From the NCBI GenBank assembly GCA_045807605.1, contig JBJMGZ010000279.1, positions 1 to 32,860 of the forward strand: 32,860 bases of DNA. Direction: 5' to 3'. The notes beneath the pieces were generated by a model. That model searched no databases. It was not told the DNA's origin and saw nothing but the letters and a program-made list of their open reading frames with translations. How positions within the stretch are numbered: position 1 is the stretch's first letter; each line of letters begins with the position of its first letter. This document shows positions 3,577-25,535 of this stretch, one piece after another. Source of the DNA: Thermoanaerobaculia bacterium. GTDB lineage: Bacteria; Acidobacteriota; Thermoanaerobaculia; Multivoradales; UBA5704. A program made the position numbers and the translations under genes.

Positions 3577-4338
3577 ATGCGCGTGAACGCCGAAGCTCCC
3601 CAGCCAAGAACGCAGAAGATCTGCGTCGTGATGCCGGCCTACAACGCGGAGAAGACGCTCGAGCGCACCTACCGGGACCTGCCGCTCGAGTGGGTGGACG
3701 ACATCGTGCTGGTCGACGACGGCAGCCGGGACCGCACCGTCGAGATCTCCCGCCGGCTCGGCCTGCACACGATCGTCCATCCGAAGAACCGCGGCTACGG
3801 CGGCAACCAGAAGACCTGCTACGCCGAGGCGCTCGCCCGCGGGGCGGACATCGTCGCCATGGTCCACCCCGACCACCAGTACGACCCGAAGTACATCCCC
3901 GAGCTGGTCGCGCCGCTGCTGCGCCAGGAGTGCGACGCCGTCTTCGGCAGCCGCATGCTCGGCGGCAGACCGCTGGAGGGGGGCATGCCGAAGTGGAAAT
4001 ACTTCGCGAACCTCTTCCTCACGGCGGTGGCCAACGCCAGCTTCTACATCTTCCTCTCCGAGTATCACTCGGGCCTGCGCGCCTACAGCCGGCGCTACCT
4101 CGAAGCGGTGGACCTCGCGGCGAACTCCGACGACTTCGTGTTCGACACCGAGATCATCGCACAGGGGGTGGTGAAGGGGATGAGGATCCGGGAGATCCCG
4201 ATCGCCACGCGCTACTTCGACGAGGCGTCGCAGATCGGCTTCGGGCGCAGCGTCGTCTACGGGCTGTCGATCCTGAACGTGCTGTTCCGCTACAAGCTGC
4301 ACAAGAAGGGCATCTACCGCTCCAGGCTGTTCGCCTGA
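3577..4338 (+). CDS. GT2 glycosyltransferase, Dpm1/GtrB-like (candidate polyprenyl-phosphate sugar synthase)
   Basis: 253 aa. Motifs are 'ICVVMPAYNAEKTLE', 'VLVDDGSRDRT', 'NRGYGGNQKTCY', 'MVHPDHQYDP' and 'FGSRMLGG'. Its 3' end overlaps the convergent GT-C gene by 25 bp (4314-4338). Confidence 0.8.
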   Translation: MRVNAEAPQPRTQKICVVMPAYNAEKTLERTYRDLPLEWVDDIVLVDDGSRDRTVEISRRLGLHTIVHPKNRGYGGNQKTCYAEALARGADIVAMVHPDHQYDPKYIPELVAPLLRQECDAVFGSRMLGGRPLEGGMPKWKYFANLFLTAVANASFYIFLSEYHSGLRAYSRRYLEAVDLAANSDDFVFDTEIIAQGVVKGMRIREIPIATRYFDEASQIGFGRSVVYGLSILNVLFRYKLHKKGIYRSRLFA

Positions 4339-6341
4339 GCGCCTGCCGCCGCCAGGATGTCGACCGGATGGTCGGAGAGGCTGCCGCCGGCCTGATCGAA
4401 CCAGGCCACGCCCTCCTGAACCAGGGTGAGGCGGAGGAGATGGGGGCCCGCCAGGGCGGGGACCTGCACCCTGACGATCATCTCGAGCGTCCCGCCGACC
4501 GGGACGTCTTCGGGCAGGAGCGAGCGCTCGCCCTCGATCGGCAGGATGCCGCCGTCCGGAGCCAGCCAGCGGTAGGAGGCGGAGACGCGGACGGCGCCCG
4601 CCTGGAACGGCAGGCCGGAGGCCGCCCAGAAGGCGTCGCTGCGGTTGATCACCTTGACGGGGATGGAGATCTGCGAGCCGGCCACGGCCCGCTCGGGAAC
4701 CGCGGCCGAGAGGAACTCCGCCCCCGGCCTGGCGAGCGGCACCGGCTGGCGGAGCAGCGGCGGCGGCAGGAGACGCCGCCCGTCCTCTCCCACGTAGATG
4801 CGATAGCCGAAGGCGCGGAGCACCCGGTAGGGATGCCCCGAGCTGGCGAGCTGGTTCAGGAGGGACGCCTCCAGCGGGTCGGGTCCCAGCATCTCTCCCG
4901 GGAAGATCCAGGCGACCCGGTCCGTGTCGCGCAGCCGGCGGGAGTAGGGCGGGTAGCGGTCCCAGCCCATGTAGGGGGCAAAGACCAGCTTCTCGCCGGC
5001 GAAGAAGGTGGCCCTGTACGCGTCCCAGTAGCCGGCATACCCTCCGGCCAGCCCCTGCGACCGGAGCACCGGAAGCAGGCTGCGGAGCGGCACCCGCTGG
5101 GCTTCCACCTCCAGCGAGGGAGTCAGGTGGGAGTGGTCGACGAGCCAGAGGGTGGACTGGAGGGCGGGCAGAGCGACCGCGAGGAGGCCCGCCACGGCCA
5201 TGGAGGGGAAGTTCCGGCGGCCCCAGCGGACGAGGGCGGCGCCCACCAGCGGCAGCGCGCTCAGCCAGGGCAGGAGATAGCGGTTGGAGCCCGCGTCCTG
5301 GGGGTTCGGGCTGAGCACGAAGAGCAGGGCCACCAGGGGGATGAGCGCGACGAGCAGCCCCTCGGTCCACCTCCGGGCGCCCTCTTCCACCTCTTTCGCG
5401 AGCGGGCGGACCAAGCGGACGAGCGCCCGGATCCAGGCTGCCGCATAGACCAGGAGCAGGAGCGCGCCGAGAGCGGAGGAGAGCGGACCGAGCGCCGGCC
5501 CGTTGTAGAACTCCAGCGGCGTTTCGGGACCGAGATTCACCCCGAAGAGCGCCGGGATGCAGTCGCGCACCAGCAGCCGCACGTTCGAGAGCACCTGTGC
5601 CGCTCCGGCGAGAGCGTAGGCCGGACGCTTCGCGCCGCGGCCCGACGCGAGCAGCGCGATCTTGGGAGCCGCGCCGAGCGCGAACCCGGCGGCCGCGAGA
5701 GCTGCGGTGCCGAGGCGCTCGCGGAGCACCGGGAGGCTCCGGAGAGACAGGAGGAAGGCGATGCCGCCCGCGAGCAGGAGGAGCGCGAAGTAGGGCAGGT
5801 ACAGCTCGTAGATGTAGAGGCCGAAGCCGGCGAAGAAGCCGAGCGCCGCGAAGCGCAGGCGGCGGGCGGGCGCCCGCAGCGCGTGCAGGAAGCAGAGCAG
5901 CGTGAGAGTCCCCCAGGCGACGATCAGGCAGTAGCCGCCGGCGGCCAGCGTGCTCCAGAACAGGAGCTGCGGGGAGAAGACGGCCAGGAGGGCGGCGGCC
6001 GCCAGCCCCTCGGCCGCGCCGTAGAGAGCGCGGCCAAGGCTGAACACGGCCACGAGGAGCGCGAGGAACCCGACGACCGCGGAGAGCTTGAACGCCAGCG
6101 CGCTGGGACCCAGGACGGCGACGAAAGGGATCGCCAGGAGACCCTCGACGATCCCGTAGTACGTCGTGTCCCAGTTGAACGCCGAGACCTCCGTGCCGGC
6201 CAGGAGGTGCTGGACGGCGAGAGCGTCGACAGCCTCGTCGGACGTGAACGCCGCCTCGGCGTTGGCGAGCAGCGGGATCCGCAGCAGGAGGCTCGCCGCC
6301 AGGAGGAGGCCGAGAAGGAGGGCCCAGGTCCGGGTCCGCAT
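4314..6341 (-). CDS. GT-C type membrane glycosyltransferase (PMT/ArnT, GT39/GT83-like) with C-terminal soluble beta-rich domain
   Basis: 675 aa. It has many hydrophobic helices. The acidic motif 'FTSDEAVD' lies directly after TM1, at the GT-C catalytic loop position. The roughly 200-aa C-terminal domain is non-hydrophobic ('SQISIPVKVINRSDAFW...LLRLTLVQEGVAWFD'). Confidence 0.7.
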   Translation of the reverse strand: MRTRTWALLLGLLLAASLLLRIPLLANAEAAFTSDEAVDALAVQHLLAGTEVSAFNWDTTYYGIVEGLLAIPFVAVLGPSALAFKLSAVVGFLALLVAVFSLGRALYGAAEGLAAAALLAVFSPQLLFWSTLAAGGYCLIVAWGTLTLLCFLHALRAPARRLRFAALGFFAGFGLYIYELYLPYFALLLLAGGIAFLLSLRSLPVLRERLGTAALAAAGFALGAAPKIALLASGRGAKRPAYALAGAAQVLSNVRLLVRDCIPALFGVNLGPETPLEFYNGPALGPLSSALGALLLLVYAAAWIRALVRLVRPLAKEVEEGARRWTEGLLVALIPLVALLFVLSPNPQDAGSNRYLLPWLSALPLVGAALVRWGRRNFPSMAVAGLLAVALPALQSTLWLVDHSHLTPSLEVEAQRVPLRSLLPVLRSQGLAGGYAGYWDAYRATFFAGEKLVFAPYMGWDRYPPYSRRLRDTDRVAWIFPGEMLGPDPLEASLLNQLASSGHPYRVLRAFGYRIYVGEDGRRLLPPPLLRQPVPLARPGAEFLSAAVPERAVAGSQISIPVKVINRSDAFWAASGLPFQAGAVRVSASYRWLAPDGGILPIEGERSLLPEDVPVGGTLEMIVRVQVPALAGPHLLRLTLVQEGVAWFDQAGGSLSDHPVDILAAAGAQANSLER

Positions 6342-6352
6342 CAGAAACGCAG

Positions 6353-6378
6353 AAAAGGCGGTCCGGAGACCGCCCTTT
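6353..6378 (-). terminator. Intrinsic terminator downstream of the small TPCR-domain gene
   Basis: On the minus strand the stem is GGCGGTC, the loop TCCG and the return arm GACCGCC (plus-strand stem 6357-6363 / 6368-6374). It is followed by TTTTCTGCGTTTCTG. It lies 33 nt after the stop at 6411 and 12 nt before the ATG at 6341. Confidence 0.6.
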
Positions 6379-6410
6379 CGACCTGCACCTTGAAGCTGCG
6401 CGTCACCGGG

Positions 6411-6890
6411 CTACGGGACCGTGGCGAAGTAGCCGGTCACGTCGAAGACGATGTGTCCCGTCCCCGGGGAGGTCATCGAGTAGCGGAAGCTCACGTCGTC
6501 CGCGCCCCCGGCGTCCGGGCCGAGCGGCACGATGGCGCCGTTCGCCAGCGCGGACTCGCCGGCCAGGAAGTTCAGGGTCGAGACCACGGGCTCGGAAGCG
6601 CCCACCGGCCAGATGGTGATGTGGCCGCTCCGGTTCGGCGTGACGACCGTCACGTTCAGGGCCGCCGCCTTGGCGCCCACCGGCACGCCGCAGGTACCCT
6701 GGACCCGGATCGAATGAATGCCGTTGGCCAGTGGGGTCGTACCATCAAAGTCCGCCCGGGAGTCGTAAACCCGGCAGGGGGTGATGGCATAGAACCGGAA
6801 AGGACCGTCGGCCGAGGCGACGTCCGGTACCGCCGTCATGAGGGTGGCGAAAGCGAGCAAAGTGGCACTAAGAACGTAAATCCTCTTCAC
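6411..6890 (-). CDS. Small secreted protein consisting of one 'TPCR...GxCGVP...DVxGYF' domain (unknown function)
   Basis: A GTG start at 6890 is preceded by GGAGGAGG with a 7-nt spacer. The signal peptide is 'VKRIYVLSATLLAFATLMTAVPDVASA'. The mature domain is clearly homologous to the C-terminus of the FG-GAP protein at 10664-12562. The 712-aa track ORF (to 8549) upstream of this start is RGPA-rich shadow. Confidence 0.75.
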   Translation of the reverse strand: MKRIYVLSATLLAFATLMTAVPDVASADGPFRFYAITPCRVYDSRADFDGTTPLANGIHSIRVQGTCGVPVGAKAAALNVTVVTPNRSGHITIWPVGASEPVVSTLNFLAGESALANGAIVPLGPDAGGADDVSFRYSMTSPGTGHIVFDVTGYFATVP

Positions 6891-6998
6891 GTGTGGTCCT
6901 CCTCCTTTTTCAAGAGGATAACACAAACCGGCCGTCAAGTGCCATCCCTCCCTTTCGTCGTTGCGGCGGCTCCGGTTTCGCCTTAGGCTTCTGCGCCT

Positions 6999-8879
6999 AT
7001 GTCTCGACCGCTCGTCGTGGCCGGCATGCACCGCTCCGGCACCTCCCTGGTCGCCTCCCTCGCGGCAGCGGCCGGCGTGGACATGGGCGAGCGGCTGATG
7101 GAAGCCGATCAGGCCAACCCGAGGGGCTACTTCGAGGACGTCGGCTTTCTCTCCCTGCAGCAGCGGATGCTCGCCGACTCCACGCCCGCGGACGACGGCG
7201 GGCACCGTGACTGGGGATGGACCGAGAGCGAGCGCCTCGACCGGGAAAGGTTCGCTCGGCACCAGGAGGAGGCCAGGAGCCTGATCGAAGCCGGCCGCCG
7301 CGCCGGCCGGCCGTGGGGCTGGAAGGACCCGCGCACGACGCTCGCCCTCGAATTCTGGGACGGGCTTCTGGGGGATGCCCGCTACCTGCTCGTCTATCGC
7401 TATCCCTGGGACGTCGCGGACTCGATGCAGCGGCTTGGCGCCGAGGTCTTCCTCCGCAACCCCGAGTACGCGTACCGGATCTGGGCCTTCTACAACCGCC
7501 ACCTCCTCGATTTCCACCGGCGCCACCGGGAGCGCTCGCTGCTGGTCGGCGTCAACGCCTTGATGCGCGACCCCGGCCGCTTCCGGATCCTCCTCGCGGA
7601 ACGGCTCGGCCTGGATCTCGCGCAGGAGCGGATGCGGGAGATCCTGGAGAACGGCCTGCTGCGGACGACCGGCGGCGCCGATCCCCTGATCGGGCTGGTG
7701 GCCGCGACCTCCCCGGAGGCCGTGCGGCTGCTGGCCGGGCTCGACGCGGAAGCCGACCTGCCGTCCACCGGCCTGTGGGAGGTCCGCCCCGCAAGCGAGC
7801 ACCGGGCGCTCTCCGTTCCCGGCGCGGCGCCGGTCCGCCTCTCGGTCGTGATCCCCTGCTACGACCATGGGGAGCTCCTGGTCGAAGCCGTGGCGAGCGC
7901 CGAGCGCAGCATCGCCGAGCTCTACGAGCTGATCGTGGTCGACGACGGCTCGCGGCAGCCGTGGACCCTGGAGGTGTTCGCCGCGCTGGAGGCCGCCGGC
8001 TATTTCGTCGTGCACCAGGAGAACCAGGGGCTCGCCGCGGCGCGCAACCGGGGGATTGAGCTGGCCACGGGCCGCTACGTCCTTCCGCTCGACTCCGACA
8101 ACCGGATCCTCCCCGGGTTTCCCGAGACGGCGGCGGGCATCCTCGACGAGGACCCGCGCGTGGGAGTGGTCTACGGCGACCGCCGCGAGCTCGGCCTGCG
8201 CGCGGGAGTGGTCCAGGTCCCGGAGTTCGATCTCGACTTGCTCCTGACCGGCAACTTCATCGACGCCTGCACCGTGATCCGCAAGAGCGCCTGGTCCGAG
8301 TGCGGCGGCTTCGACCGCAACATGCCCCATCAGGGCTGGGAGGACTGGGACTTCTGGCTCTCGGCGGCGGAGCAGGGGTGGGGCTTCCACCACCTGCCCT
8401 GGGCCACGTTCGAGTACAGGGTTCGTCCCGGATCGATGATCTGGCGCCTGGCCAGCCCGGAGGTGGGGAGGCCCTTGCAGGGCTACATCGTCGAGAAGCA
8501 TCGGGATCTTTACTTGAGGCGCCTGCCGCAGCTCCTGATGAGCGTGCAAGCAGCCCAGCGCGAATCGCGGAGCCTTCTCGACGAGGCTGCCCGCCTGCGG
8601 CGCGAGTCCGAGGCCCTCGCGCGGGAGCGGGAGGCGCTAGCGGAGGAGCGGGAGGTGCTTGCGGGGGAGCGGTATACCCTCGCCAAGGAACGGGAGAAGC
8701 TGGTCTCCCAGCGCGACGCGCTCCTCGCGGACCAGGAGCGCCTGCAGACCGAGCGCGACCTGCTCTACCGGGAGCTGGGCTTCTGGAGGGAGCGTGTGGC
8801 CTTCATGGAGAAGACCGCGGCATGGCGGTGGCGCGAGCGCTGGATCCGGTTCAAGGGCAGGTGGCGGCGCTCGGCCTGA
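6999..8879 (+). CDS. Sulfotransferase - GT2 glycosyltransferase fusion with C-terminal heptad-repeat coiled coil
   Basis: 626 aa. The N-terminus has 'VVAGMHRSGTSLV' (5'-PSB-like PAPS loop) and 'WGWKDPRTTL' (3'-PB-like). The middle has 'LSVVIPCYDHGE...LIVVDDGSRQ...LPLDSDN' (GT2). The C-terminus has 'LAREREALAEEREVLAGERYTLAKEREKLVSQRDAL'. Confidence 0.8.
   Translation: MSRPLVVAGMHRSGTSLVASLAAAAGVDMGERLMEADQANPRGYFEDVGFLSLQQRMLADSTPADDGGHRDWGWTESERLDRERFARHQEEARSLIEAGRRAGRPWGWKDPRTTLALEFWDGLLGDARYLLVYRYPWDVADSMQRLGAEVFLRNPEYAYRIWAFYNRHLLDFHRRHRERSLLVGVNALMRDPGRFRILLAERLGLDLAQERMREILENGLLRTTGGADPLIGLVAATSPEAVRLLAGLDAEADLPSTGLWEVRPASEHRALSVPGAAPVRLSVVIPCYDHGELLVEAVASAERSIAELYELIVVDDGSRQPWTLEVFAALEAAGYFVVHQENQGLAAARNRGIELATGRYVLPLDSDNRILPGFPETAAGILDEDPRVGVVYGDRRELGLRAGVVQVPEFDLDLLLTGNFIDACTVIRKSAWSECGGFDRNMPHQGWEDWDFWLSAAEQGWGFHHLPWATFEYRVRPGSMIWRLASPEVGRPLQGYIVEKHRDLYLRRLPQLLMSVQAAQRESRSLLDEAARLRRESEALAREREALAEEREVLAGERYTLAKEREKLVSQRDALLADQERLQTERDLLYRELGFWRERVAFMEKTAAWRWRERWIRFKGRWRRSA
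8616..8720 (+). repeat. Five tandem 21-nt (heptad) coding repeats L-A-x-E-R-E-x
   Basis: In-frame units start at 8616, 8637, 8658, 8679 and 8700. They encode LAREREA / LAEEREV / LAGERYT / LAKEREK / LVSQRDA. Nucleotide similarity is visible in the first units (gagcgggaggcgct / gagcgggaggtgct). Confidence 0.65.
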
Positions 8880-8908
8880 CTCTGCGCCGCCACCTGGATT
8901 CCCGGTCC

Positions 8909-9838
8909 TTACTGCTTCGGAATATCGGCGTCGGTCGGGGCACCGGTATCGGCGTTCATGACATCGCCGAAGGTGACGATGTGACCGCCCCCGGAGGTGG
9001 CCAGACCGGTGCCGTTGCCGGCGATCATGCAGTCGCTGACCCGGACCGTGGCATTGGGGTTGTCCGACTTCACGCCGTTCAAGTTCCCGGTCGAGACGCA
9101 ACTGAAGAGATTCAGGGTCACCCCGGTCGCATTCGAGACGGCGATGAAGCCCGAGGCGGTGGTGTTGCCGATCGCGCTGCTGTCCTTGGCCGTCACCTTG
9201 CTGTTGTCCTCGACGCGGAGGCCCTGGAAGTTGTTGTTCAGCCGAGTGTTCTCAACCACCCCCACCGCCGAGACGTTGGTGCCCGGCTTGATACGGATCC
9301 CGCCGCTCGAAGCGCCCAGGTTGTTGCGGATGATCGTATCGTTGACGTGGAGCTGGCTGGTAACGGTCGTGGCGCTCGTGGGGACGAAGTCGATTCCCCA
9401 CTGGGTGAAGTGATGGATCGTGCAGTTCTCGACGTCGACGGCGCCGGCCGACAGGACCTTGATCCCGGCGAGACCCGTGCCCAGGCCCTCGATGTCGAGC
9501 CCGCGCAGGATGATACGGTCCGTGTTCGCGGCATTGATGATGATGGCGTTGGTGCCCGATACGAGCACGCCGGCCTCGAATCCCTCGGAGGAGATCGTGA
9601 TGGACTTGGTGATCGTCACCCCGCCGAAGCCACCGGGATCGAGGACGTTGATCTCGCCCCCGGCAGCGGTCTTCGAGATCGCGCCCGCGAACGTCTTGCA
9701 GGGCGCCGTGCGGCTGCAGGGGTTGGCGTCGTCGCCGACTCCCGACACCCAGGTGCGGGTCGCCTGAGCCTGCGCTGCGGCGCTCAGGGTCAGAAGGACA
9801 AGGAACGACAGCAGAGCGTGAACGGATGTTCTCTTCAT
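8909..9838 (-). CDS. Secreted right-handed parallel beta-helix repeat protein
   Basis: The ATG at 9838 is preceded by AGGAGGAGAG. The signal peptide is 'MKRTSVHALLSFLVLLTLSAAAQA'. The N-terminal cap 'TWVSGVGDDANPCSRTAPCKTFAGAI' is typical of this family. Repetitive Asn/Gly/Thr/Ile-rich coils follow ('IENCTI', 'NDTIIRNN', 'ENTRLNNN'). The track start at 9901 adds 21 residues with no SD. Confidence 0.8.
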   Translation of the reverse strand: MKRTSVHALLSFLVLLTLSAAAQAQATRTWVSGVGDDANPCSRTAPCKTFAGAISKTAAGGEINVLDPGGFGGVTITKSITISSEGFEAGVLVSGTNAIIINAANTDRIILRGLDIEGLGTGLAGIKVLSAGAVDVENCTIHHFTQWGIDFVPTSATTVTSQLHVNDTIIRNNLGASSGGIRIKPGTNVSAVGVVENTRLNNNFQGLRVEDNSKVTAKDSSAIGNTTASGFIAVSNATGVTLNLFSCVSTGNLNGVKSDNPNATVRVSDCMIAGNGTGLATSGGGHIVTFGDVMNADTGAPTDADIPKQ

Positions 9839-9878
9839 GAGACTCTCCTCCTTGGGAATCAATAGAGCCCGGTTCAGA

Positions 9879-9908: not shown

Positions 9909-9973
9909 ACCCCTTTGGTGCTACGTCAACAGAGGCGCGCCAGGGCCACAGAGTGTTACAGGGGATCGCATCG

Positions 9974-10660
9974 ATGATGGAATTTGACCGCTTGCCAAAT
10001 CAGTACTCCAGGCAGCTCTCGGCGGAGGAGATCGCCGCAGGAAACCACCGCGAGTTCGTAGGGGGGCTCTGGGACCACCTCGGAATCCTCCAGCTCGGGT
10101 TCCTGATCGGCCGCGGGCTGCGGCCGCCGCTGCGGCTGCTCGACCTGGGATGCGGGTGTCTGCGCGGCGGCGTCCACTTCGTCCGGTACCTGGAGCCCGG
10201 CCACTACTTTGGCGTGGACGTCAACGAGTCCCTGTTGATCGCGGGGGAACAGGAGCTGGAAAGGGAGGGGCTGCGCGAGCGGCTCCCGCCGGGCAACCTG
10301 CTTGCGAACGGTGCCTTCGAAGGCTGGCGGTTCGGCGTGGATTTCGACTTCGTCCTGGCGCAATCGGTATTCACGCACCTGCCGGCCGTCTGGCTGCGTC
10401 ACTGCCTCGGCGAGCTCACCCGCTGCGTCCGGCCAGGGGGGCAGTTCTACGTCACCTACTTCGAGTGTCCCGCGGATTGGCCGGAGCTGCCGCGGACGTA
10501 CGAGCCGCACGGGGGCACGACGTACCCGGACCGCGATCCATTTCACTATCGCGTCGAAGATCTGCGGCGCTGCGCCGAAGGCCTGCCCTGGCGCCTCGAG
10601 CCTCTCGGAAGCTGGGGGCATCCGCGAGGTCAGCACATGGCGCTGTACGTGCGGGAGTAG
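9974..10660 (+). CDS. Class I SAM-dependent methyltransferase
   Basis: Motif I is 'LLDLGCGCLRGG', followed by 'YFGVDVN' and 'PGGQFYVTY'. The start could be GTG 9953, ATG 9974 or ATG 9977, all in frame. The stop is 3 nt from the convergent FG-GAP gene stop. Confidence 0.8.
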   Translation: MMEFDRLPNQYSRQLSAEEIAAGNHREFVGGLWDHLGILQLGFLIGRGLRPPLRLLDLGCGCLRGGVHFVRYLEPGHYFGVDVNESLLIAGEQELEREGLRERLPPGNLLANGAFEGWRFGVDFDFVLAQSVFTHLPAVWLRHCLGELTRCVRPGGQFYVTYFECPADWPELPRTYEPHGGTTYPDRDPFHYRVEDLRRCAEGLPWRLEPLGSWGHPRGQHMALYVRE

Positions 10661-10663
10661 CCC

Positions 10664-12562: not shown

Positions 12563-12611
12563 ATCGTGAGGAAAGTATACCACGCCCTCCTCAAGGGCGA
12601 TCCGGGGGGTT

Positions 12612-17587: not shown

Positions 17588-17613
17588 CACCGTTCCCTAT
17601 AATATCGAAACAA

Positions 17614-18309
17614 TCATTGCGCACGCGCCGACAGGAGGAGCTGGTACCCGAGCAGCCCCGGCAGCAGGCGGGTGGCCGCCGACAGGGCGAGCGCCAGGGC
17701 GCCGAGCACGGGCTTGGGCAGGCGCGGCAGCAGGAGCGGCAGCGGGATGGTCGACACCGCCCGGCGCTCGACGACGAAGCCGGCCCTCTCCACCATCTCG
17801 CGCAGCGAGCGGGCGGTGAAGAAGTAGCGGTGGGTGCGGTCCAGGATGCCGCGGTCGGCGTAGGGGAAGCGGCCGAACAGCAGGTTGAGCCGCACGTAGA
17901 AGTTGGCCACGTTGGGGACGGACAGCAGCAGCAGCCCTCCCTTCGGCAGCGCCTCCCGGATCATCCGCAGCATGCCGTCCGGATCGGCGAGGTGCTCCAG
18001 CGTGTCGGCGGCCAGCACGGCGCCATAGCCGCGCGGCAGGCGCCCGATCGTCTCGAGGTCCACGATGGCGCCGCCGGAGAGCGTCCCGCGCAGGCCCGGC
18101 AGGCAGTCGAGCGAGCCTTCGAGCCCCACCCAGTCGAGATCGCCGCGCCGCACCAGGAGGGCGACGTGGGCCGGGCCGGGGCCGAGCTCGAGGATCCGGG
18201 TGCCGGCCGGCAATCCCTGGATCCAGCCCGCCAGGAGCCGGTGGCTCGAGCCGCGGAAGTCCTTGAGCACGTAGCGCTCGGCGGGGGAGGCGGGGCGTGG
18301 CGGGGTCAT
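17614..18309 (-). CDS. Class I SAM-dependent methyltransferase
   Basis: The ATG at 18309 overlaps the upstream stop (ATGA). Motifs are 'ILELGPGPAHVA', 'VLAADTLEHLADP' and 'LPKGGLLLLSVPN'. The C-terminal hydrophobic tail is 'IPLPLLLPRLPKPVLGALALAL'. The track ORF extension to 19518 is shadow. Confidence 0.8.
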   Translation of the reverse strand: MTPPRPASPAERYVLKDFRGSSHRLLAGWIQGLPAGTRILELGPGPAHVALLVRRGDLDWVGLEGSLDCLPGLRGTLSGGAIVDLETIGRLPRGYGAVLAADTLEHLADPDGMLRMIREALPKGGLLLLSVPNVANFYVRLNLLFGRFPYADRGILDRTHRYFFTARSLREMVERAGFVVERRAVSTIPLPLLLPRLPKPVLGALALALSAATRLLPGLLGYQLLLSARAQ

Positions 18310-19502
18310 GGCTCCTCTCGTTCGGCAGCGGAGCATACCGCGGCGATCCCGGCCGCCCCAACCTCCAGGGGGACGAGCCGGCCGGCTCCCAGGCGCGGCA
18401 GCCGGTCGCCCACGGCGCCAAGGTCGAACGCCACCACCGGCACGCCCGCGGCCCGGCACTCGTCGAGGATCAGGCTGTAGGACTCGGGCACGATCGAGAG
18501 CAGCAGCGCCAGGTCGACGCGGTCGCGGCGCAGGAGACGCGGCAGGGTGCCGCCGCGGTAGTAGCCGCGCACCCGGACGGGCAGCCGCCGCAGCCGGGCC
18601 AGGATCTCCGGATCGCCCCCGCCGTAGGCGCTCCAGCGCAGCCCCGATCCTGCCAGGAGCCGCACCACCTCCTCGAACACCAGCGCCCCCTTGTGCGCCT
18701 GCACCCCTCCGACCAGGGCGACGTGGCGCACCGGCCGTGCCTCCCGCGAAGGCAGGGGAGGGATTCCCGCGGCCGGCTCCACGATCCGCTGGCGTTCCGG
18801 AGGAAGCCCCGGGAAGAGCTCCGCGCAGGTCCGCCGCAGGAACTCGGACGGGAAGAGGAGGACCGAGGCGCTCGCCAGCAGCTCGGCCGAGATCGCCCGG
18901 CGCTCCGCCTGGTACGCGTCCTCGACCGGCCAGTCCTGGCGCAGGCAGCGCCCGCACCGTTCGAGATCGCGCGAGTACCAGCAGAACCGGAGCTGCGGGC
19001 GCTCCAGGAGGTGAGGGCGGGGGCAGAACGCGGCGAAGTCGTGCAGCGCGAGCCTCAGGTCCAGACCTCCGCGCCCGAGGCGGAGGAGAGAGCCGGGCGG
19101 CAGGCCGGCCAGCCCTTCGACGTGGACGGCCCCCGCCCCGAGGACTCCCGCCGCCGATCGGACCGCATTTTCGAACGCGGCATCCTCCAGGGCGATCGGC
19201 GAGGGGGGAGCTCCGGGGAAGGTCATGGACCTCCCCTGGACCTCCAGCCGCCACCCGGCCGCCTCGGGGTACAGGAGCGCGGTGCCAGGCTCCAGGCGGC
19301 GGAGGAGATGCGCCTGGACTCCGCCCAGCCGGGGGGCCGGAGGCGTCGCCGAGAGGTGGAGGACGGGAACGGGCGCGGGCCGCCAGCCCGGAGGAGCCGG
19401 GGAGAACGACCGTCGCCGCCGCGCTTCGGCGAGCCGGTCGAGCGCCCGGTCGCGGACCGCCAGGAGCCCCTCCGTCCGCAGCACCCGCCAGGCAACCCTC
19501 AT
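18306..19502 (-). CDS. GT-B/GT4-like glycosyltransferase with Cys-rich insertion
   Basis: 398 aa. Its start overlaps the upstream stop (ATGA at 19499-19502). The cysteine pattern 'FCPRPHLL...RFCWYSRDLERCGRC' matches that of the next gene. The C-terminal half, 'VALVGGVQAHKG...SIVPESYSLILDECRAAGVPVVAFDLGA', resembles the GT4 sugar-donor domain. This is the weakest family call among the GTs. Confidence 0.6.
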   Translation of the reverse strand: MRVAWRVLRTEGLLAVRDRALDRLAEARRRRSFSPAPPGWRPAPVPVLHLSATPPAPRLGGVQAHLLRRLEPGTALLYPEAAGWRLEVQGRSMTFPGAPPSPIALEDAAFENAVRSAAGVLGAGAVHVEGLAGLPPGSLLRLGRGGLDLRLALHDFAAFCPRPHLLERPQLRFCWYSRDLERCGRCLRQDWPVEDAYQAERRAISAELLASASVLLFPSEFLRRTCAELFPGLPPERQRIVEPAAGIPPLPSREARPVRHVALVGGVQAHKGALVFEEVVRLLAGSGLRWSAYGGGDPEILARLRRLPVRVRGYYRGGTLPRLLRRDRVDLALLLSIVPESYSLILDECRAAGVPVVAFDLGAVGDRLPRLGAGRLVPLEVGAAGIAAVCSAAEREEP

Positions 19503-21532
19503 CGCAGCACGCGCTCATAGACCGCCTCGATCTCCTCGGCGTGCTCGTCCATCCCCTTGACCCGGGGCAGGGCGGCGGCCCAGCGGTCCAGGATCTCCGG
19601 CTCCGCGATCAGGCGCTCGATCCAGCCGCGCAGCGCCGCCGGGTCTTCCGGATCGAAGAGAGCGCCGTACTCGCCGTCGAACATCTCGGGCAGCGCGCCG
19701 CGGTCGCTCGCCAGCACCGGCACGCCGTGGTGCATGGCCTCGCGGGCGACCAGGCCGAAGGATTCGAGCCCGAGCGAAGGGACGATCAGCGCGTCCATCT
19801 GCGCGAAGATCGCGGGCTTGCGCTCCTCCTCGAACGGCGGATCGCCCCAGACCGTCAGCCTCGCCTTCCCGGGGTCGATCTCCTCGAAGGCGGCGGTTGC
19901 CACGCGGATCCCCTTGTGCGGCAGGCTGGAGCCGATGGCTCCGAAGCGGAGAGGCTTTCCTCTCTCCCTTTGCAGGCGCGGCGTCAGCTCGACGCCGTAG
20001 GGGATCACGAAGACTTCGTCCTTCGGCCGCAGGTAGCCCAGGTCGAGGTAGCTCCGGTGGATGAAGCGGGAGCCCATGACGAAGGCCGCCGCGCTCCTCA
20101 GGGCCTTCTTCATCAGGGCGAAGCGGTAGACGTAGAGCGCCCGGTTGAGGAGAGAGACGCGGGTCAGCGGACGGCAGGCCGCGCATTTGCCCAGGCCCGG
20201 ACCGCTGCACAGGCGGCCCCAGGCGTCGAGCAGGTTCACGCGGGCGCAGGGCTGCCACCAGTCCTGGATCTGGAAGACGATCGGGATCCCCTGCCGCGCC
20301 GCCGCTCCGACCAGGGACGCGGCGTGGCCGGCCAGGTGATGGACGTGGAGGAGCTGCGGGCGGGTCTCGTCGAGCAGGCGCGCGAAGTCCCGCTCCAGCG
20401 CCCGGTCGCGCAGCGCGTTGCGCGACAGCGGGTCGCGTTGGGTGAAGTTGTTCACGGTCAGCCGCACGCGGGCGCCGTGGTCGAGGAACTCGACGACGCT
20501 CCCCTTGACCCGCTCGGGGTCGGCGATGCGCGCGTAGACCGTGACCTCCCGGTGGCGGGCCTGCCTGCGGACGAGCCCGGCGGCATAGAGCTCCGTGCCC
20601 GCGGAGTTCCAGGGCGGCCAGCCATGGACCAGGTGCAGCACCCGCTCGGGGCGGCTTGCAGCGCTCCGCGCCGGAACGATCGCCGAAACAACCCGCTCGC
20701 GCAGGGGGCGGATCGGGTCCTCGCGGACGAACCTGGCCACCGTGGCCAGGTACTCGGGGTGGAGCCGCCGCATGGCGCCGAGGGCGTACCTAACCAGCTC
20801 GGCCCGCCGCGTGCCGAAGCTGCGCTGGCCTTCGTGGAAGATGAAGGTGGCGTCGTCGAGGACGTGGGCATAGCCGGCCTTGAGCGCCCGCATGCAGAAA
20901 TCGGTCTCCTCGCCGTAGCCCTCGCCGAAGCTCCCGGCGTCGAAGAGCCCGATCCCGTCGAGGACCTTCCGCTTGATGTAGAGGCAGAAGCCGACGCCGG
21001 TGGGCAGGCGCGGGTAGGCCCGCAGGGAGCGCTCCTCCACCAGCCGGCCGAGCCGTTCGACATCCCAGCCGGTCGGGAGGGCATTGGTCTCCCCGACCCG
21101 GGGGAGAGAGCAGATCGTGGCGCTGTTCGAGAACGGGGTGACGGTGGCGATCTCCGGCGCCGAGTACGCGGCCTCCTGGAGCTTGGCGACCCAGCGGGAG
21201 GTGACCCGCGTGTCGCTGTTGAGCAGGATGACGTCCCGGTCGTCCGAGACGGACATGCCGAGGTTGACGCTCACCACGAACCCCTGGCGCTCGGGATTGC
21301 TCAGGACCAGGACGCTCTCCGGCGGCCGCGGCATCCCCGGCGGCTGGGGACCGTCGAGCACGACGATCAGCCGGTGTTTCTGCAGGTCGGTGTGGGCGAG
21401 CAGGCTTTCGAGGCAGCGGCCGAAGACCTCCGGCGCTCCGGCCACGGGCACGATCACGTCCACGGGTCCGGGGGGGCGGTCGGGAGGGACCCGCGAAGGG
21501 TCTCCCTGGAGCGGCAGGGGAGCGGCACGCAT
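19499..21532 (-). CDS. Bifunctional GT2 - GT4 glycosyltransferase with Cys-rich insertion
   Basis: ATG at 21532, 677 aa. The N-terminus has 'VDVIVPVAGAPE...VILLNSDTRV...GEETDFCMRA' (GT2). The C-terminus has 'LHLVHGWPPWNSAGTE...HVHHLAGH...PSLGLESFGLVAREAMHHGVPVLASDRGALPE' (GT4). The insertion is 'WWQPCARVNLLDAWGRLCSGPGLGKCAAC'. The track ORF upstream to 23257 is shadow. Confidence 0.85.
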   Translation of the reverse strand: MRAAPLPLQGDPSRVPPDRPPGPVDVIVPVAGAPEVFGRCLESLLAHTDLQKHRLIVVLDGPQPPGMPRPPESVLVLSNPERQGFVVSVNLGMSVSDDRDVILLNSDTRVTSRWVAKLQEAAYSAPEIATVTPFSNSATICSLPRVGETNALPTGWDVERLGRLVEERSLRAYPRLPTGVGFCLYIKRKVLDGIGLFDAGSFGEGYGEETDFCMRALKAGYAHVLDDATFIFHEGQRSFGTRRAELVRYALGAMRRLHPEYLATVARFVREDPIRPLRERVVSAIVPARSAASRPERVLHLVHGWPPWNSAGTELYAAGLVRRQARHREVTVYARIADPERVKGSVVEFLDHGARVRLTVNNFTQRDPLSRNALRDRALERDFARLLDETRPQLLHVHHLAGHAASLVGAAARQGIPIVFQIQDWWQPCARVNLLDAWGRLCSGPGLGKCAACRPLTRVSLLNRALYVYRFALMKKALRSAAAFVMGSRFIHRSYLDLGYLRPKDEVFVIPYGVELTPRLQRERGKPLRFGAIGSSLPHKGIRVATAAFEEIDPGKARLTVWGDPPFEEERKPAIFAQMDALIVPSLGLESFGLVAREAMHHGVPVLASDRGALPEMFDGEYGALFDPEDPAALRGWIERLIAEPEILDRWAAALPRVKGMDEHAEEIEAVYERVLR

Positions 21533-21583
21533 GGGCGGAAGGCACGGTATCACCGTTGTGCTACGATCCGCGCCCGATATCGC

Positions 21584-21595
21584 CATGAAAGCGGC

Positions 21596-21605
<10 letters not shown>
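21584..21605 (+). repeat. 11-bp tandem duplication spanning the start codon, creating a 4-codon upstream mini-ORF
   Basis: The sequence is CATGAAAGCGG CATGAAAGCGA. The first ATG (21585) reads MKAA-stop. Its TGA (21597-21599) overlaps the second ATG (21596), which opens the 482-aa gene starting MKAN. Confidence 0.6.
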
Positions 21606-23044
<1,439 letters not shown>

Positions 23045-23064
23045 ACGGCGGCATGGCTCACACC

Positions 23065-23165
23065 CACGGACGGACACGGACGGACACGGACAGACACGGA
23101 CAAAGGGGACCCGGAGCGCCGTCCCCAGGTCCGTGACCGTCCGTGGGGGTCCGTGTTCGTCCGTG
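23065..23165. repeat. Phased heptamer inverted-repeat element: 4 x CACGGAC and 4 x GTCCGTG, each set at exact 10-bp spacing
   Basis: CACGGAC occurs at 23065, 23075, 23085 and 23095. GTCCGTG occurs at 23129, 23139, 23149 and 23159. The 3-nt spacers differ between arms (GGA/GGA/AGA versus ACC/GGG/TTC). The centre carries GGGGAC (23105-23110) and GTCCCC (23121-23126). The element lies between the stop at 23044 and the start of the next gene, which it overlaps. Confidence 0.9.
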
Positions 23166-25535
23166 TCCGCCTGGATCGCGGCCGCGGCGGCGGCCCTGGT
23201 CGCGGTCTGGATGGACCTGTCGGCGCTCCACGCGTACCACACGGCCGACTCGTTCATCCCGGTCTTCGCCGGGCTCTACCGCTGGACCCCGTTCTTCTGG
23301 GAGCAGAACCGCTTCGGCCTGCTCATCCCGCTCCTCAGCCTGCCGATCGACTCGCCGTTCGCCAACCTGCTCTTCCAGGTGGGGCTGCGCCTCTTCGCGG
23401 TCGCCGCCGCCTTCTTCCTGCTCGCCCGGACCGTAGTGCCGCGGCCGTACTGGCCCGCGGTGGGAGCGCTGACGCTCGCGCTCTGGATCGGCGGCAAGGA
23501 GATCCAGGCGCATGCCTTCATCCAGATGCAGCCCTATGGCCAGGCCGCGGCGCTCGGCCTGGCCGGCCTGCTGCTCCTGGAGCGCGGGCCCGGGTGGCGC
23601 CGCGCGGCCGGGCTCGGGTTGATCCTCCTGGGCTCCTGGGTGTCGTTCACGGCCGTGCTCTGGCTCTTCCCCCTGGTGTGCGCCCGCTATCTTCTGTTCG
23701 ACAAGCTCCGGAAGGCCTGGCTCCCGCTCGCCGCCCTGGTCCTGTCGTCCGGCGCCAGCCTGCTCTTCTCGTGGCTGTCGATCTACCGGCTGTCGACCTC
23801 GTTCGCGGCGGCCGGCCCCGCGGACTGGCCGCGCGCCTGGCGCACGCTGGCGGCGCGGTCGGCGGACTACGTTTCGCTGCCGCTGGTGCTGGCCGCGCTC
23901 GGGCTGCTCGTCGTGGCCGCGCTCCTCAGGCGGCGGCTCGCGCTGTCGGCGGCGCTCTGCCTGCTGGCCGCGGGGCTGGGGGAGCTCCTCGTGGTCGGCA
24001 CCACGTTCTGGGCCGAGGCCAACGGCTGGAGCATCCGCTACGTGACCCTGGGGCTGCTCGCCCTGGGCATGCTCGCGCCCGCCCTGGCCCTCATCCTGGT
24101 GCTGGAGGGACGGCCGGAGCGCTGGCACCGGGCCGCGAACGCCCTGGCGCTCCTGGCGCTCTTCTCGGCCGCGGCGCTGCGCTACGGCGCGCCTTCCGTG
24201 CAGGCGGCGCGCGCCGCGCTCGACACGTTCGGAGGCGCCACGGAGGAGATCCTCGCCGCGCGCTGCACGCACATCCTCGGCGGCTACTGGCGCGCCTGGC
24301 CCGCGGCGTTCCATGCCGACATGGTGCGCTGGGAGCGCGGGGAGAGCACGCCGGTCTGGGTGATCACCTTCCGCTCCGGTCCGACCGAGCGCCTCTGGCG
24401 GCGCAAGGACTGGACCGGGACCCGCTTCGCCGTGCTGCGCGGCTTCCGCCAGGCGGCCGAGGACGCGCGCCGCCACGCCGGCCTGCCGCGGCTCGAGCTG
24501 ATCGAGGAGCGGCGGGACATCCTGGTCTACACGACACGCCGGGGCGGCCCGGATCTTGCTGTAAGCTCCGGCGCCATGACGAACGACCGCACGCCACAGA
24601 CCGTTTGCATCACCGGAGGAGCCGGCTTCATCGGCTCTCACCTTGCCGACGCCTTCCTCGCCCGCGACGGGCGGGTGCTGATCCTCGACGATCTTTCCGG
24701 AGGCCGGCGGGAGAACGTGCCCGCCGGCGCCGAGCTGCACGTGCTGGACATCCGCTCGCCCGAGGCGGCGGCGCTGGTGCGGGAGAGCGGCGTGGACGTG
24801 CTCGTCCATCACGCCGCGCAGATGGACGTGCGGCGCTCCGTGGAGGACCCCGCCTTCGACGCCGACGTGAACATCCTGGGCAGCCTCAACCTGGTAGATG
24901 CGGCGCGCCAGGGGGGCGTCAAGCAGGTGCTCTTCGCCTCGACCGGCGGCGCGATCTACGGCGAGCAGGACTACTTCCCGGCCGACGAGCAGCACCCGGC
25001 GCGGCCGGTGTCGCCCTACGGCGTCTCCAAGCTCGCGTTCGAGCGCTATCTCTTCTACTTTCACGTGGCCTACGGCCTCGACGCCGCCTGCCTGCGCTAC
25101 GCCAACGTCTATGGCGAGCGGCAGAACCCCCACGGCGAGGCCGGCGTGGTGGCGATCTTCCTGAGCCGCCTGCTCGCCGGCCAGGCGCCGACGATCAACG
25201 GCCCGGGGCTCCAGACGCGGGACTACGTGCACGTCTCCGACGTGGTGCGGGCGAACCTGCTGGCGGTGGGGAGGCCCGGCTTCCACATCTACAACGTGGG
25301 CACCGGCGTCGAGACCTCGGTCGTGGAGCTCTACCGCGAGCTTGCCCGCGCCGTGGGGAGCGATCTCGAGCCGCAGCACGGGCCGGCCAAGCCGGGCGAG
25401 CAGCAGCGCTCGGTCATCGACGCGCGCCTGATCAAGGCGCAGCTCGGCTGGCCCGACCCGCTGCCTCTGCGCCAGGGCATCGAGCGCACGGCCGCCTGGT
25501 TCCGCCAGCGCGCCGAGACCACCGTGCCGGCTTGA
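23133..25535 (+). CDS. Polytopic membrane protein (GT-C-like N-terminal motif) fused in frame to NAD-dependent sugar epimerase (GalE/SDR family)
   Basis: This is a single 800-aa frame with no stop. Residues ~1-370 are hydrophobic helices with 'YHTADSF' after TM1, followed by a ~110-aa soluble linker. From 24576 the sequence is 'MTNDRTPQTVCITGGAGFIGSHL...PVSPYGVSKLAFE...' (GxxGxxG and YxxxK of extended SDRs). The start is uncertain: GTG 23133, GTG 23163 or ATG 23211. Confidence 0.7.
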   Translation: MTVRGGPCSSVSAWIAAAAAALVAVWMDLSALHAYHTADSFIPVFAGLYRWTPFFWEQNRFGLLIPLLSLPIDSPFANLLFQVGLRLFAVAAAFFLLARTVVPRPYWPAVGALTLALWIGGKEIQAHAFIQMQPYGQAAALGLAGLLLLERGPGWRRAAGLGLILLGSWVSFTAVLWLFPLVCARYLLFDKLRKAWLPLAALVLSSGASLLFSWLSIYRLSTSFAAAGPADWPRAWRTLAARSADYVSLPLVLAALGLLVVAALLRRRLALSAALCLLAAGLGELLVVGTTFWAEANGWSIRYVTLGLLALGMLAPALALILVLEGRPERWHRAANALALLALFSAAALRYGAPSVQAARAALDTFGGATEEILAARCTHILGGYWRAWPAAFHADMVRWERGESTPVWVITFRSGPTERLWRRKDWTGTRFAVLRGFRQAAEDARRHAGLPRLELIEERRDILVYTTRRGGPDLAVSSGAMTNDRTPQTVCITGGAGFIGSHLADAFLARDGRVLILDDLSGGRRENVPAGAELHVLDIRSPEAAALVRESGVDVLVHHAAQMDVRRSVEDPAFDADVNILGSLNLVDAARQGGVKQVLFASTGGAIYGEQDYFPADEQHPARPVSPYGVSKLAFERYLFYFHVAYGLDAACLRYANVYGERQNPHGEAGVVAIFLSRLLAGQAPTINGPGLQTRDYVHVSDVVRANLLAVGRPGFHIYNVGTGVETSVVELYRELARAVGSDLEPQHGPAKPGEQQRSVIDARLIKAQLGWPDPLPLRQGIERTAAWFRQRAETTVPA

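Follow-up and report, generated by a model that had tools for sequence, protein, structure and literature searches.

We have analysed a stretch of 32,860 nucleotides (nt) from an uncultured Thermoanaerobaculia bacterium of soil type (assembly GCA_045807605.1; below, the window) that, as delimited by sequence comparison, holds most of a conserved cluster of ∼31 kb encoding glycosyltransferases, membrane proteins and secreted proteins. The cluster probably makes an envelope glycan that depends on a transporter of the ATP-binding cassette (ABC) type for its export and is decorated after export by four enzymes of the GT-C fold (M1 to M4), which are fed by three synthases of lipid-linked sugars (G1; M3-N, the N-terminal domain of M3; and G3). 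Three secreted proteins (S1, S2 and S3) are encoded among these enzymes; the coordinates of all labelled genes are given in Table 1. In public annotation the genes of the cluster appear only as ‘glycosyltransferase’, ‘FG-GAP repeat protein’ or ‘hypothetical protein’. An initial annotation, made from the letters of the window, had recognized the synthase-like and the membrane proteins and had proposed that they form a system without an exporter that decorates the secreted proteins or a surface glycoconjugate, instead of making a classical polymer. The two enzyme classes and their pairing stand; the exporter-less system acting on proteins in place of a polymer is not supported.

The window has a G+C content of ∼70%, and reading frames were therefore picked by the G+C content of third codon positions (GC3). 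All open reading frames (ORFs) named in the initial annotation are in GC3-supported frames. Flanking sequence came from the 47,995-bp source contig, on which the window was located through homologue searches (our locus L038; record JBJMGY010000059.1, locus tags ACJ76J_03820 to _03850). When 185,579 species genomes were scanned with a profile of M2, 33 loci were obtained, and the proteins of the window were compared with 31 of these by tblastn; individual loci are cited here by our own labels. The M2 loci all come from metagenome-assembled genomes (MAGs) labelled Thermoanaerobaculia, Acidobacteriota or ‘Holophagales’, with the exception of one bin labelled Anaeromyxobacter.

Three modules of glycosyltransferase family 2 (GT2) had been singled out as carrying a Dpm1/GtrB-type signature, and the motifs quoted for them are present in the translations: MVHPDHQYDP in G1, LDADLNHQPEEIP in M3 and FQDADLEYDP in G3. 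Their best matches in NCBIfam and the PDB fall in the Dpm1/GtrB/ArnC class and differ from those of the other GT2 domains in the window. Across G1, M3-N and G3 the best NCBIfam families are PpgS, AglJ, Dol-P-hexose transferase, ArnC and PgfS; G1 is matched best by PpgS (5.6e-21, full profile) and AglJ (2.2e-20), and G3 by AglJ (2.6e-27) and ArnC (4.9e-20), while M3 has a Pfam Glycos_transf_2 match of 3.7e-23. In the PDB, M3-N matches DPMS (8.3e-26), ArnC (7e-17) and GtrB (8e-6); G3 matches DPMS (3.6e-17) and ArnC (5e-17), and GtrB scores as well. The alignments of these two modules span the whole GT-A domain, beyond its nucleotide-binding half. For all three modules the best PDB match is the Pyrococcus DPMS (5mlz), at 3.7e-8 for G1; in the case of G1, glucosyl-3-phosphoglycerate synthase and chondroitin synthase, both GT-A enzymes of general type, outrank ArnC, and GtrB does not appear. 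The remaining four GT2 domains (79-1032, 1036-2889, 6999-8879 and 19499-21460) served as a control. Their NCBIfam matches are of the MftF, EpsD and PgaC type and include none of the synthase families, thus the three GT2s of the initial annotation make up a real subclass. By their sequence matches, then, G1, M3-N and G3 belong at class level to the Dpm1/GtrB/ArnC group of GT2 enzymes.

The three modules differ in their attachment to the membrane. In M3 a transmembrane helix (residues 237-255) directly follows the GT2 domain. No transmembrane segment is predicted in G1 or G3; the tail of G1 is basic and looks amphipathic, and G3 runs on into a methyltransferase, an architecture that is kept in a cluster of 35 members. 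G3 could make a methylated lipid-linked sugar or else act on the polymer.

The four large polytopic proteins are GT-C-fold enzymes, as had been proposed; the assignment comes from Pfam for M3, from profile–profile comparison (hhalign) for M1 and M4, and from AlphaFold2 (AF2) models searched with Foldseek for M2 and M4. The one direct match to a GT-C family is that of M3 to PMT_2 (PF13231; 4.8e-9, 37.1 bits, the cut-off being 26.1). No Pfam or NCBIfam match was obtained for M1, for M2 or for the membrane portion of M4, their PDB sequence searches gave noise only, and the C-terminal domains of M1 and M2 are likewise without a Pfam match. A search of the PDB with the M1 family profile also gave noise only; the same profile aligns with the PMT_2 domain of M3 over 417 columns (hhalign probability 99%, E-value 3.4e-18), and PF13231 is found in 26 of 90 M1 homologues, some of which are named GT39. 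The M4 family profile matches the GT-C domain of M3 (probability 93%, E-value 3.5e-7) and the M1 family (E-value 2e-4). The AF2 model of M4, built from 64 sequences, has a predicted local distance difference test value (pLDDT) of 91.1 and a predicted template modelling score (pTM) of 0.91; its best Foldseek match is ArnT (5f15; 5.3e-4, TM-score 0.48), followed by EmbA/B, AftA/B and PglB. On these profile comparisons the M1 and M4 families are remote homologues of PMT_2.

M2 stands apart. Neither M2 nor any of its 79 homologues has a Pfam domain, PMT_2 included, and the hhalign probability against the M1 family is 3%. Since hhalign cannot join M2 to PMT_2, we accept it as a GT-C protein by its fold only. 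The AF2 model (pLDDT 93.2, pTM 0.88) finds as its top Foldseek matches in the PDB EmbB (9.7e-6), STT3, ArnT, EmbC, ALG12, DPY19, PglB, AftA and Pmt4, all of them GT-C enzymes, and its C-terminal beta-sandwich matches the carbohydrate-binding modules (CBMs) CBM15 and CBM16 and those of a mannanase and a xylanase. As modelled, M2 is a separate GT-C family for which Pfam has no model. An identity as O-antigen ligase, polymerase (WaaL/Wzy) or transporter was considered and rejected, as no such fold combines a high rank with a high probability among the Foldseek matches of M2 and M4. The initial annotation had held that matches of the membrane proteins to ligase, polymerase or transporter families would tell against it, and no such match was observed.

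Each of the four membrane proteins has an acidic motif, present as quoted in the initial annotation: FTSDEAVD in M1, WAYDDVDY in M2, YMADADSL in M3 and YHTADSF in M4. The motif is located in the first extracytoplasmic loop after the first transmembrane helix and is invariant in the family alignments of M1 (D35/E36), M2 (D41/D42/D44) and M4 (H33/D39). Mean column identity in these alignments is only 36-41%, so the invariance is not a matter of chance. Alignment brings the M1, M3 and M4 motifs into register, and the same three proteins have a common ‘GGYW.A(Y/W)’ motif past the membrane bundle. The N-termini of the GT-C proteins are basic, which fits an N-in topology. That these enzymes use lipid-phosphate-linked sugar donors outside the membrane is suggested indirectly, by the fusion and coupling of their genes to those of the synthases.

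The pairing of synthase modules with membrane proteins, pointed out in the initial annotation, recurs in the Thermoanaerobaculia relatives both as a coupled pair and as fusions. A GT2 of the M3 type lies immediately upstream of M2 in 17 of the 31 loci, and in 13 it is preceded by a methyltransferase of the type encoded from 16913. In L001 a standalone GT2 of 242 amino acids (aa) overlaps the start of M2 by 4 nt (translational coupling), and P0148, a protein of 913 aa, joins the GT2 to M2 in a single chain. Five other genomes have the GT2/GT-C fusion of M3 as an uninterrupted frame, which in every case stops just upstream of M2, and we therefore take the fusion as real. In the window G1 and M1 are convergent with an overlap of 25 nt, and the convergent pair is kept in at least seven genomes (L038, L039, L040, L006, L011, L014 and L016). 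M4 consistently precedes the epimerase gene.

The boundary between M4 and this epimerase had to be redrawn. The 800-aa ORF at 23133-25535 (+), taken as one protein in the initial annotation, is in fact a GT-C protein (∼23133-24560) followed by a GalE-like epimerase with its ATG at 24576. At the junction (24530-24580) L001 has a TAA stop codon, a conserved intergenic stretch and the ATG of the epimerase, while the window reads through in frame. Of the M4 homologues examined, which stand alone and measure 426-679 aa, none has an epimerase domain. In L001 and L041 a separate epimerase gene of 321-322 aa follows M4, and in L041 the two genes overlap by 4 nt. In the NCBI annotation a 319-aa epimerase is called separately, and there is no M4 protein record between MFL6198276 and MFL6198277. 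A bifunctional M4-epimerase fusion was thus rejected on the stop codon lost relative to L001, the standalone homologues and the separate NCBI epimerase. A periplasmic C-terminal domain and a cytoplasmic NAD enzyme in one chain would also be inconsistent in topology. The read-through is either real, as a mutation or a pseudogene, or an error in the MAG consensus.

The initial annotation had seen no exporter gene inside the window, and this was borne out. Its view that the locus does something other than make a classical polymer rested on that absence, but a Wzm/Wzt-type ABC exporter flanks the window, 2.5-4.1 kb to the left of position 1 (L038 18886-20454). It consists of an ABC2_membrane permease of 255 aa and an ABC ATPase of 264 aa. 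The best NCBIfam matches of the permease are galactan-export Wzm/RfbD (3e-25) and KpsM; those of the ATPase are TagH (8e-63) and galactan-export Wzt (6e-60). The genes to the left of the window are, in order, those for two ∼400-aa proteins, the permease, the ATPase and a GT4 enzyme (glycosyltransferase family 4), with a ComM-like gene ending the cluster; exporter and GT4 together occupy the interval 2.5-5.2 kb left of the window. The arrangement recurs in L039 and L040; of these two relatives one, with a genome of 8.38 Mb, has an M2 that is 51% identical to that of the window, and the other an M2 that is 76% identical. The block from the epimerase to the ABC transporter is syntenic in three genomes, and in it the GT-C and synthase genes are interleaved with those of chain-building glycosyltransferases. 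The cytoplasmic enzymes of the window comprise about six GT2/GT4 proteins, in two of which a GT2 is fused to a GT4; methyltransferase domains number four or five, and one protein joins a sulfotransferase, a GT2 and a coiled coil. Export genes flanking the window had been named in advance as evidence against the exporter-less scheme, and what was found answers to this in part: an ABC exporter, and the anatomy of an ABC-dependent polysaccharide cluster.

Families and folds, invariant motifs, synteny, gene fusions and the exporter are observed; the following scheme of donors, acceptor, successive steps and roles for the secreted proteins is inferred from homology. Soluble GT2, GT4 and GT2-GT4 enzymes would build a lipid-linked glycan at the membrane's cytoplasmic face, where the methyltransferase domains and the sulfotransferase domain would modify it, giving a methylated and possibly sulfated product. 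The Wzm/Wzt-type transporter would then export this glycan. Separately, G1, M3-N and G3 would use nucleotide sugars to charge polyprenyl phosphate with single sugars, with one of these sugars probably supplied by the GalE-like epimerase encoded beside M4. The donors would be flipped, and M1, M2, M3 and M4 would transfer the sugars to the exported glycan at the periplasmic face, with the invariant Asp/Glu after the first transmembrane helix as catalytic residues. S1, S2 and S3 would act as conserved accessories, whether as glycan-binding or glycan-anchored surface proteins or as processing factors.

A scheme of this kind is known from the serotype c carbohydrate (SCC) of Streptococcus mutans, in which two undecaprenyl-phosphate glucose synthases (SccN/SccP) and two GT-C enzymes (SccM/SccQ) decorate an ABC-exported polyrhamnose; the flippase there is unidentified (PMC11754754). 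The proposed system is like SCC, and like the group A carbohydrate (GAC) of S. pyogenes, in having a cytoplasmically made backbone, ABC export, several synthase/GT-C pairs that add side chains, and no identified flippase. It differs from SCC in belonging to a diderm acidobacterium, in having four GT-C enzymes and three synthases instead of two and two, and in the fusion of one synthase to a GT-C enzyme and of another to a methyltransferase. Its GT-C enzymes are PMT_2-like or unclassified, not of the streptococcal types; methylation and sulfation enzymes take the place of glycerol phosphate (GroP) transfer, and conserved secreted proteins are encoded inside the cluster. The initial annotation had considered three or four donor/transferase pairs in one locus to be unusual. 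The number is indeed at the high end, but it is not unprecedented, given the two donor/GT-C pairs in the ABC-dependent SCC locus (PMC11754754).

ABC-dependent O antigens of Klebsiella are modified by three-component systems (PMC11127046). Such Gtr-type systems (GtrA/GtrB/Gtr*, with Klebsiella and Citrobacter variants) resemble the cluster in combining a GtrB-like synthase with a periplasmic GT-C enzyme that acts on the finished polymer, and they are compatible with ABC export (PMC11127046). Here, in contrast, no GtrA, SMR or MATE gene was found in the window, and multiple pairs are interleaved with backbone genes where Gtr-type systems have a three-gene cassette.

In the making of mycobacterial arabinogalactan and lipoarabinomannan (LAM), galactan is exported by Wzm/Wzt (Rv3781/Rv3783), after which GT-C enzymes of the Emb/Aft type act with decaprenyl-P-arabinose. 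Likeness to this pathway is seen in the exporter, which scores well against the galactan Wzm/Wzt, in the several GT-C enzymes for one exported polymer, in the presence of EmbB and EmbC among the best structural matches of M2, and in the CBM-like periplasmic C-terminal domain that M2 has in common with Emb. On the other hand, there is no sequence-level relation to Emb/Aft, the donors would come from Dpm1-like GT2 enzymes and not from phosphoribosyl pyrophosphate (PRPP) and DprE, and the phylum and the envelope are different.

Several observations weigh against a decorated, ABC-exported glycan. The NCBIfam scores of the synthases are far below the equivalog cut-offs, which bears on all functional assignments and holds membership to the class level. 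The TM-scores from Foldseek (0.3-0.48) are modest, which is usual when multi-domain GT-C proteins are compared. G3, having no membrane segment and being fused to a methyltransferase, is atypical for a lipid-sugar synthase, and it is not always the neighbour of M4. From the epimerase to the ComM-like gene we found no initiating phosphoglycosyltransferase (WecA/WbaP), no ligase (WaaL/Wzy_C) and no LCP-type domain. No flippase of GtrA, SMR or MATE type and no small ORF with several transmembrane segments and a coding signal was seen in the window, and the genes called in L038-L040 include neither a GtrA nor a MATE domain. Of the three components that Gtr-type systems encode together (synthase, GT-C enzyme and dedicated flippase), the flippase was thus not found in the window. 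Finally, the most constant neighbour of M2 is the secreted S3 and not a gene of glycan synthesis, and the pair of M2 and S3 persists in L017 with no other gene of the cluster nearby, which fits a protein acceptor or partner at least equally well. Genes for initiators and ligases often sit elsewhere in the genome. A Gtr-like mechanism can still apply, because the flippase is likewise unidentified in S. mutans SCC (PMC11754754). Candidates for a flippase were examined and rejected: the genes at 2889-3483 encode soluble coiled-coil proteins, and the ORF at 8985-9410 (+), the sole small one with two transmembrane segments and high GC3, is spurious, being antisense to S2.

The secreted proteins bear on the choice of acceptor. 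All three carry typical N-terminal signal peptides, as the initial annotation had stated. S1 is homologous to the last ∼125 residues of S3 (10664-11050; blastp 2e-19), and this S1 domain has the invariant core PCR..DTR, G.CG.P, N.T (an N-x-T sequence) and D.xG. Across the M2 loci 52 ORFs carry the domain, in every case at the very C-terminus, where it ends in DVxGYF plus 1-4 residues; the proteins measure from ∼150 to ∼1,000 aa or more, sizes that are upper bounds, as they were taken from stop-to-stop frames. The S1 domain has no Pfam match at E-values up to 10, and a profile of 30 sequences found nothing significant in the PDB (a phage protein and two ‘S-layer’ chains at E-values of 0.17-0.55 are noise). 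A HMMER scan of 1.84 billion representatives of clusters at 50% identity returned 22,599 cluster representatives at E ≤ 1e-3. Members of the family mostly have 3, 6 or 9 tandem copies, and ten sampled members have PKD, subtilase, Big_9, cadherin-like and CarboxypepD_reg as companion domains. By these numbers and companion domains, S1 is an extracellular module of very wide distribution; in its triplet architecture it is reminiscent of cell-surface anchoring domains such as SLH or CWB2. In five loci (L026, L028, L033, L025 and L018) arrays of 4-6 differently sized S1-domain proteins are encoded beside M2, an arrangement that suggests a cargo family with one common C-terminal module. S2 has weak NosD/pectate-lyase matches in NCBIfam and is conserved in L001, L003 and L040; no PDB sequence match was found for S2 or S3. 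From its family matches S2 is possibly a glycan-processing or glycan-binding protein.

The main alternative, which we consider unlikely, is that the synthase/GT-C pairs, or at least M2 with the synthase upstream of it, glycosylate S1, S3 and perhaps S2 in the manner of PMT or Pgf enzymes. Such a role is suggested by the company that M2 keeps: S3 is its most constant neighbour, adjacent in 20 of the 31 loci; S1-domain proteins are present in 18, with up to six per locus; and in L017 M2 and S3 are left as a pair without the rest of the cluster. The S1 domain, with its invariant N-x-T, sits like a tag at the extreme C-terminus, and M1, M3 and M4 are relatives of PMT_2. The same logic is seen in the Pgf operon of S. 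mutans, where a synthase (PgfS), a sugar epimerase (PgfE), GT-C enzymes (PgfM1/PgfM2) and secreted surface proteins (the adhesins Cnm, CnaB and CbpA) are encoded together and the targets are disordered and rich in Ser/Thr (PMC12041528). However, the Pgf GT-C enzymes are of the YfhO type, with neither an ABC exporter nor a battery of cytoplasmic glycosyltransferases, and S1, S2 and S3 lack the Ser/Thr-rich disordered tracts that are the targets of PMT and Pgf enzymes: no Ser/Thr-rich tract and no poly-Ser/Thr was found in them, the maximum being 6-7 Ser+Thr per 20 residues. The S1 family is enormous, whereas the scan of species genomes returned M2 only from Thermoanaerobaculia/Acidobacteriota MAGs apart from the one Anaeromyxobacter bin; therefore the domain does not need M2. 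The C-terminal domain of M2 resembles modules that bind carbohydrate, and the exporter, the many cytoplasmic glycosyltransferases and the methyltransferases would be left without explanation.

Decoration of proteins and of an exported glycan are compatible in one respect, as M2 could act on S1-domain proteins and M1, M3 and M4 on the polymer. A joint reading along these lines, which we put forward tentatively and would not expect to hold as a whole, makes the C-terminal S1 domain the real partner of M2 and has M3 make, flip and consume its donor as a single chain. With sugar from the coupled synthase, M2 may glycosylate the S1 domain or build the glycan epitope that S1 binds. The M3 polypeptide may make a polyprenyl-P-sugar, translocate it and consume it; its fusion recurs, and no flippase was found in the window. 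If the partnership of M2 and S1 is true, the cluster would serve a dedicated display of surface proteins in a diderm, comparable with the anchoring of SLH domains to secondary cell wall polysaccharide (SCWP) or of type IX secretion C-terminal domains (T9SS-CTD) to A-LPS. If M3 indeed makes, flips and uses its donor, the long-open question of how polyprenyl-P-sugars are flipped would become directly testable.

It is far less probable that the GT-C enzymes modify lipid A or the core of lipopolysaccharide (LPS), as ArnC/ArnT and RgtA-E of Rhizobium do, with the polysaccharide cluster merely adjacent. The Acidobacteriota are a diderm phylum and have LPS, M4 finds its best single structural match in ArnT, which is also among the top matches of M2, and ArnC is among the best matches of all three synthase domains. 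More widely, the ArnC/ArnT and PMT/Ppm1 systems (GT83/GT39) have in common with the cluster the synthase/GT-C logic, the remote PMT_2 relationship of M1, M3 and M4 and the acidic motif after the first transmembrane helix. Yet the models specific to those families are not reached, no MIR domain is present, and no donor-modification genes of the ArnA, ArnB or ArnD type appear in the Pfam results for the window. The context is that of a polysaccharide cluster, with the GT-C and synthase genes interleaved among chain-building glycosyltransferases in a block that is syntenic in three genomes; and M2 has a CBM-like domain that ArnT does not have. Of similarly low probability is that one GT-C enzyme, most plausibly M2, is an oligosaccharyltransferase (OST)-like enzyme or ligase that transfers the exported lipid-linked glycan en bloc to S1-domain proteins or to another envelope anchor: STT3, PglB and AglB are among the structural matches of M2, the cluster showed no attachment enzyme of the WaaL, PglL or LCP type, the genes of S3 and S1 keep close company with M2, and the S1 domain has its N-x-T, but the coupling to a synthase in many genomes and the fusion in P0148 point to a monosaccharide donor on polyprenyl monophosphate, and EmbB and ArnT score equal to or above the OSTs. 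An OST motif of the WWDxG type was not seen either, though no search aimed at it was made.

The decoration of an ABC-exported glycan, which we prefer, is a kind of system already known; its parts are unusually many, and some are unclassified. New are its occurrence in a phylum without envelope biochemistry; the combination, within a single cluster, of four GT-C enzymes with three synthases; two GT-C families for which Pfam has no model (M2, recognizable by fold only, and M4, by remote profile matching); the recurrent fusion of a synthase to a GT-C enzyme, along with that of a synthase to a methyltransferase; and conservation alongside a huge unannotated family of extracellular domains (S1). 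A literature search found no paper linking Thermoanaerobaculia to glycosyltransferases and none on this system, which is not proof of absence; to our knowledge nothing is known from experiment about the cell envelope of Thermoanaerobaculia. From the cluster one would predict for these bacteria an envelope glycan that is methylated, possibly also sulfated, and that receives up to four sugars outside the membrane. The M3 fusion could serve in studies of the coupling of donor synthesis to donor use across the membrane, and the genomic link of S1 to a GT-C enzyme provides a first functional hypothesis for a domain family of more than 22,000 clusters.

Table 1. Genes of the cluster within the window, with assigned labels and the matches behind each assignment (SAM, S-adenosylmethionine)
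Feature	Position	Strand	Basis
GT2, cytoplasmic chain-building type	79..1032	-	Pfam Glycos_transf_2 5.8e-24; best NCBIfam MftF, EpsD, PgaC
GT2 + GT4 two-domain cytoplasmic glycosyltransferase	1036..2889	-	Pfam Glycos_transf_2 5e-17, Glycos_transf_1 1.5e-13
Pair of small coiled-coil proteins, soluble, of 96 and 99 aa	2889-3179, 3184-3483	-	No transmembrane segment in translations
G1, polyprenyl-phosphate sugar synthase-like GT2	3577..4338	+	Pfam GT2 7e-23
M1, GT-C, remote PMT_2/GT39-like, ∼10 transmembrane segments + periplasmic C-terminal region	4314..6341	-	
S1, small secreted protein: signal peptide + one S1 C-terminal domain	6411..6890	-	
Sulfotransferase + GT2 + C-terminal coiled coil, cytoplasmic	6999..8879	+	Pfam Sulfotransfer_3 1.5e-7, Glycos_transf_2 7.5e-22
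S2, secreted right-handed beta-helix protein	8909..9838	-	Signal peptide; Pfam Beta_helix 5e-8
SAM-dependent methyltransferase	9953..10660	+	Pfam Methyltransf_12, _25, _11
S3, secreted FG-GAP beta-propeller + C-terminal S1 domain	10664..12562	-	Pfam FG-GAP_3 4e-25
M2, GT-C-fold, unclassified family, C-terminal CBM-like beta-sandwich	12612..14615	-	AF2 model + Foldseek
M3, polyprenyl-phosphate sugar synthase-like domain (residues 1 to ∼235) fused to PMT_2-type GT-C	14643..16916	-	
SAM methyltransferase, stop overlapping M3 start by 4 nt	16913..17590	-	Pfam Methyltransf_11 2.9e-16
Methyltransf_23-type methyltransferase, start codon uncertain	17614..18303	-	Pfam 1.4e-17; GC3 frame support
GT4-like glycosyltransferase	18306..19502	-	Pfam Glyco_trans_1_4 4.8e-6; kept in 8/31 M2 loci
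GT2 + GT4 two-domain cytoplasmic glycosyltransferase, start ∼21460-21545	19499..21460	-	Pfam Glyco_transf_4, Glycos_transf_1, Glycos_transf_2
G3, synthase-like GT2 fused to SAM methyltransferase	21596..23044	+	Pfam GT2 1e-35, Methyltransf_12 4e-16
M4, GT-C, remote PMT_2 relative	23133..24560 (end approximate)	+	
GalE-like NAD-dependent sugar-nucleotide 4-epimerase	24576..25535	+	Pfam Epimerase 1.7e-57; NCBIfam GalE 3.1e-48

Among the other enzymes of Table 1, the GT2 + GT4 gene of the 1036..2889 type is present in 15 of the 31 M2 loci, and the architecture of the second such protein (19499..21460) is shared with a 681-aa homologue in L001. The product of 6999..8879 has Pfam matches of coiled-coil type at residues 514-606 (∼100 aa); the coiled coil recalls, as we presume, the molecular rulers WbdD and WbbB that regulate chain length in ABC-dependent O-antigen systems. 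The sulfotransferase domain of the same protein suggests a sulfated glycan.

The pair of small coiled-coil genes (2889-3483) lies between G1 and the GT2-GT4 gene. It has no NCBIfam match and no family assignment; counterparts of 93-100 aa are found in L038, L039 and L040, and the position is kept in the relatives of 76% and 51% identity. The two ∼400-aa proteins to the left of the window (L038 16250-18670) are conserved between the last GT2 and Wzm/Wzt in all three genomes examined, and the last 92 nt of the first gene are positions 1-92 of the window. With no match in Pfam or NCBIfam, they are candidates for an initiator, a terminator or an attachment enzyme. A further conserved protein of 880-900 aa, also without a Pfam or NCBIfam match, occurs in relatives: it takes the place of the 9953-10660 methyltransferase in L001 (13993-16704) and L040 (3691-6402), and in L003 (6884-9532) it is upstream of M2.

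On its right-hand side the cluster ends with the epimerase gene. The end is marked by a flank (25648-28927) that encodes a TonB-C protein, dihydrofolate reductase (DHFR), thymidylate synthase (ThyA) and LemA and is syntenic with L041. Farther out, and outside the glycan cluster, the gene at 30116-31954 (-) encodes a 612-aa protein that gave no match in Pfam, NCBIfam or the PDB and has an HETGH sequence resembling the HExxH motif of zinc metalloproteases.

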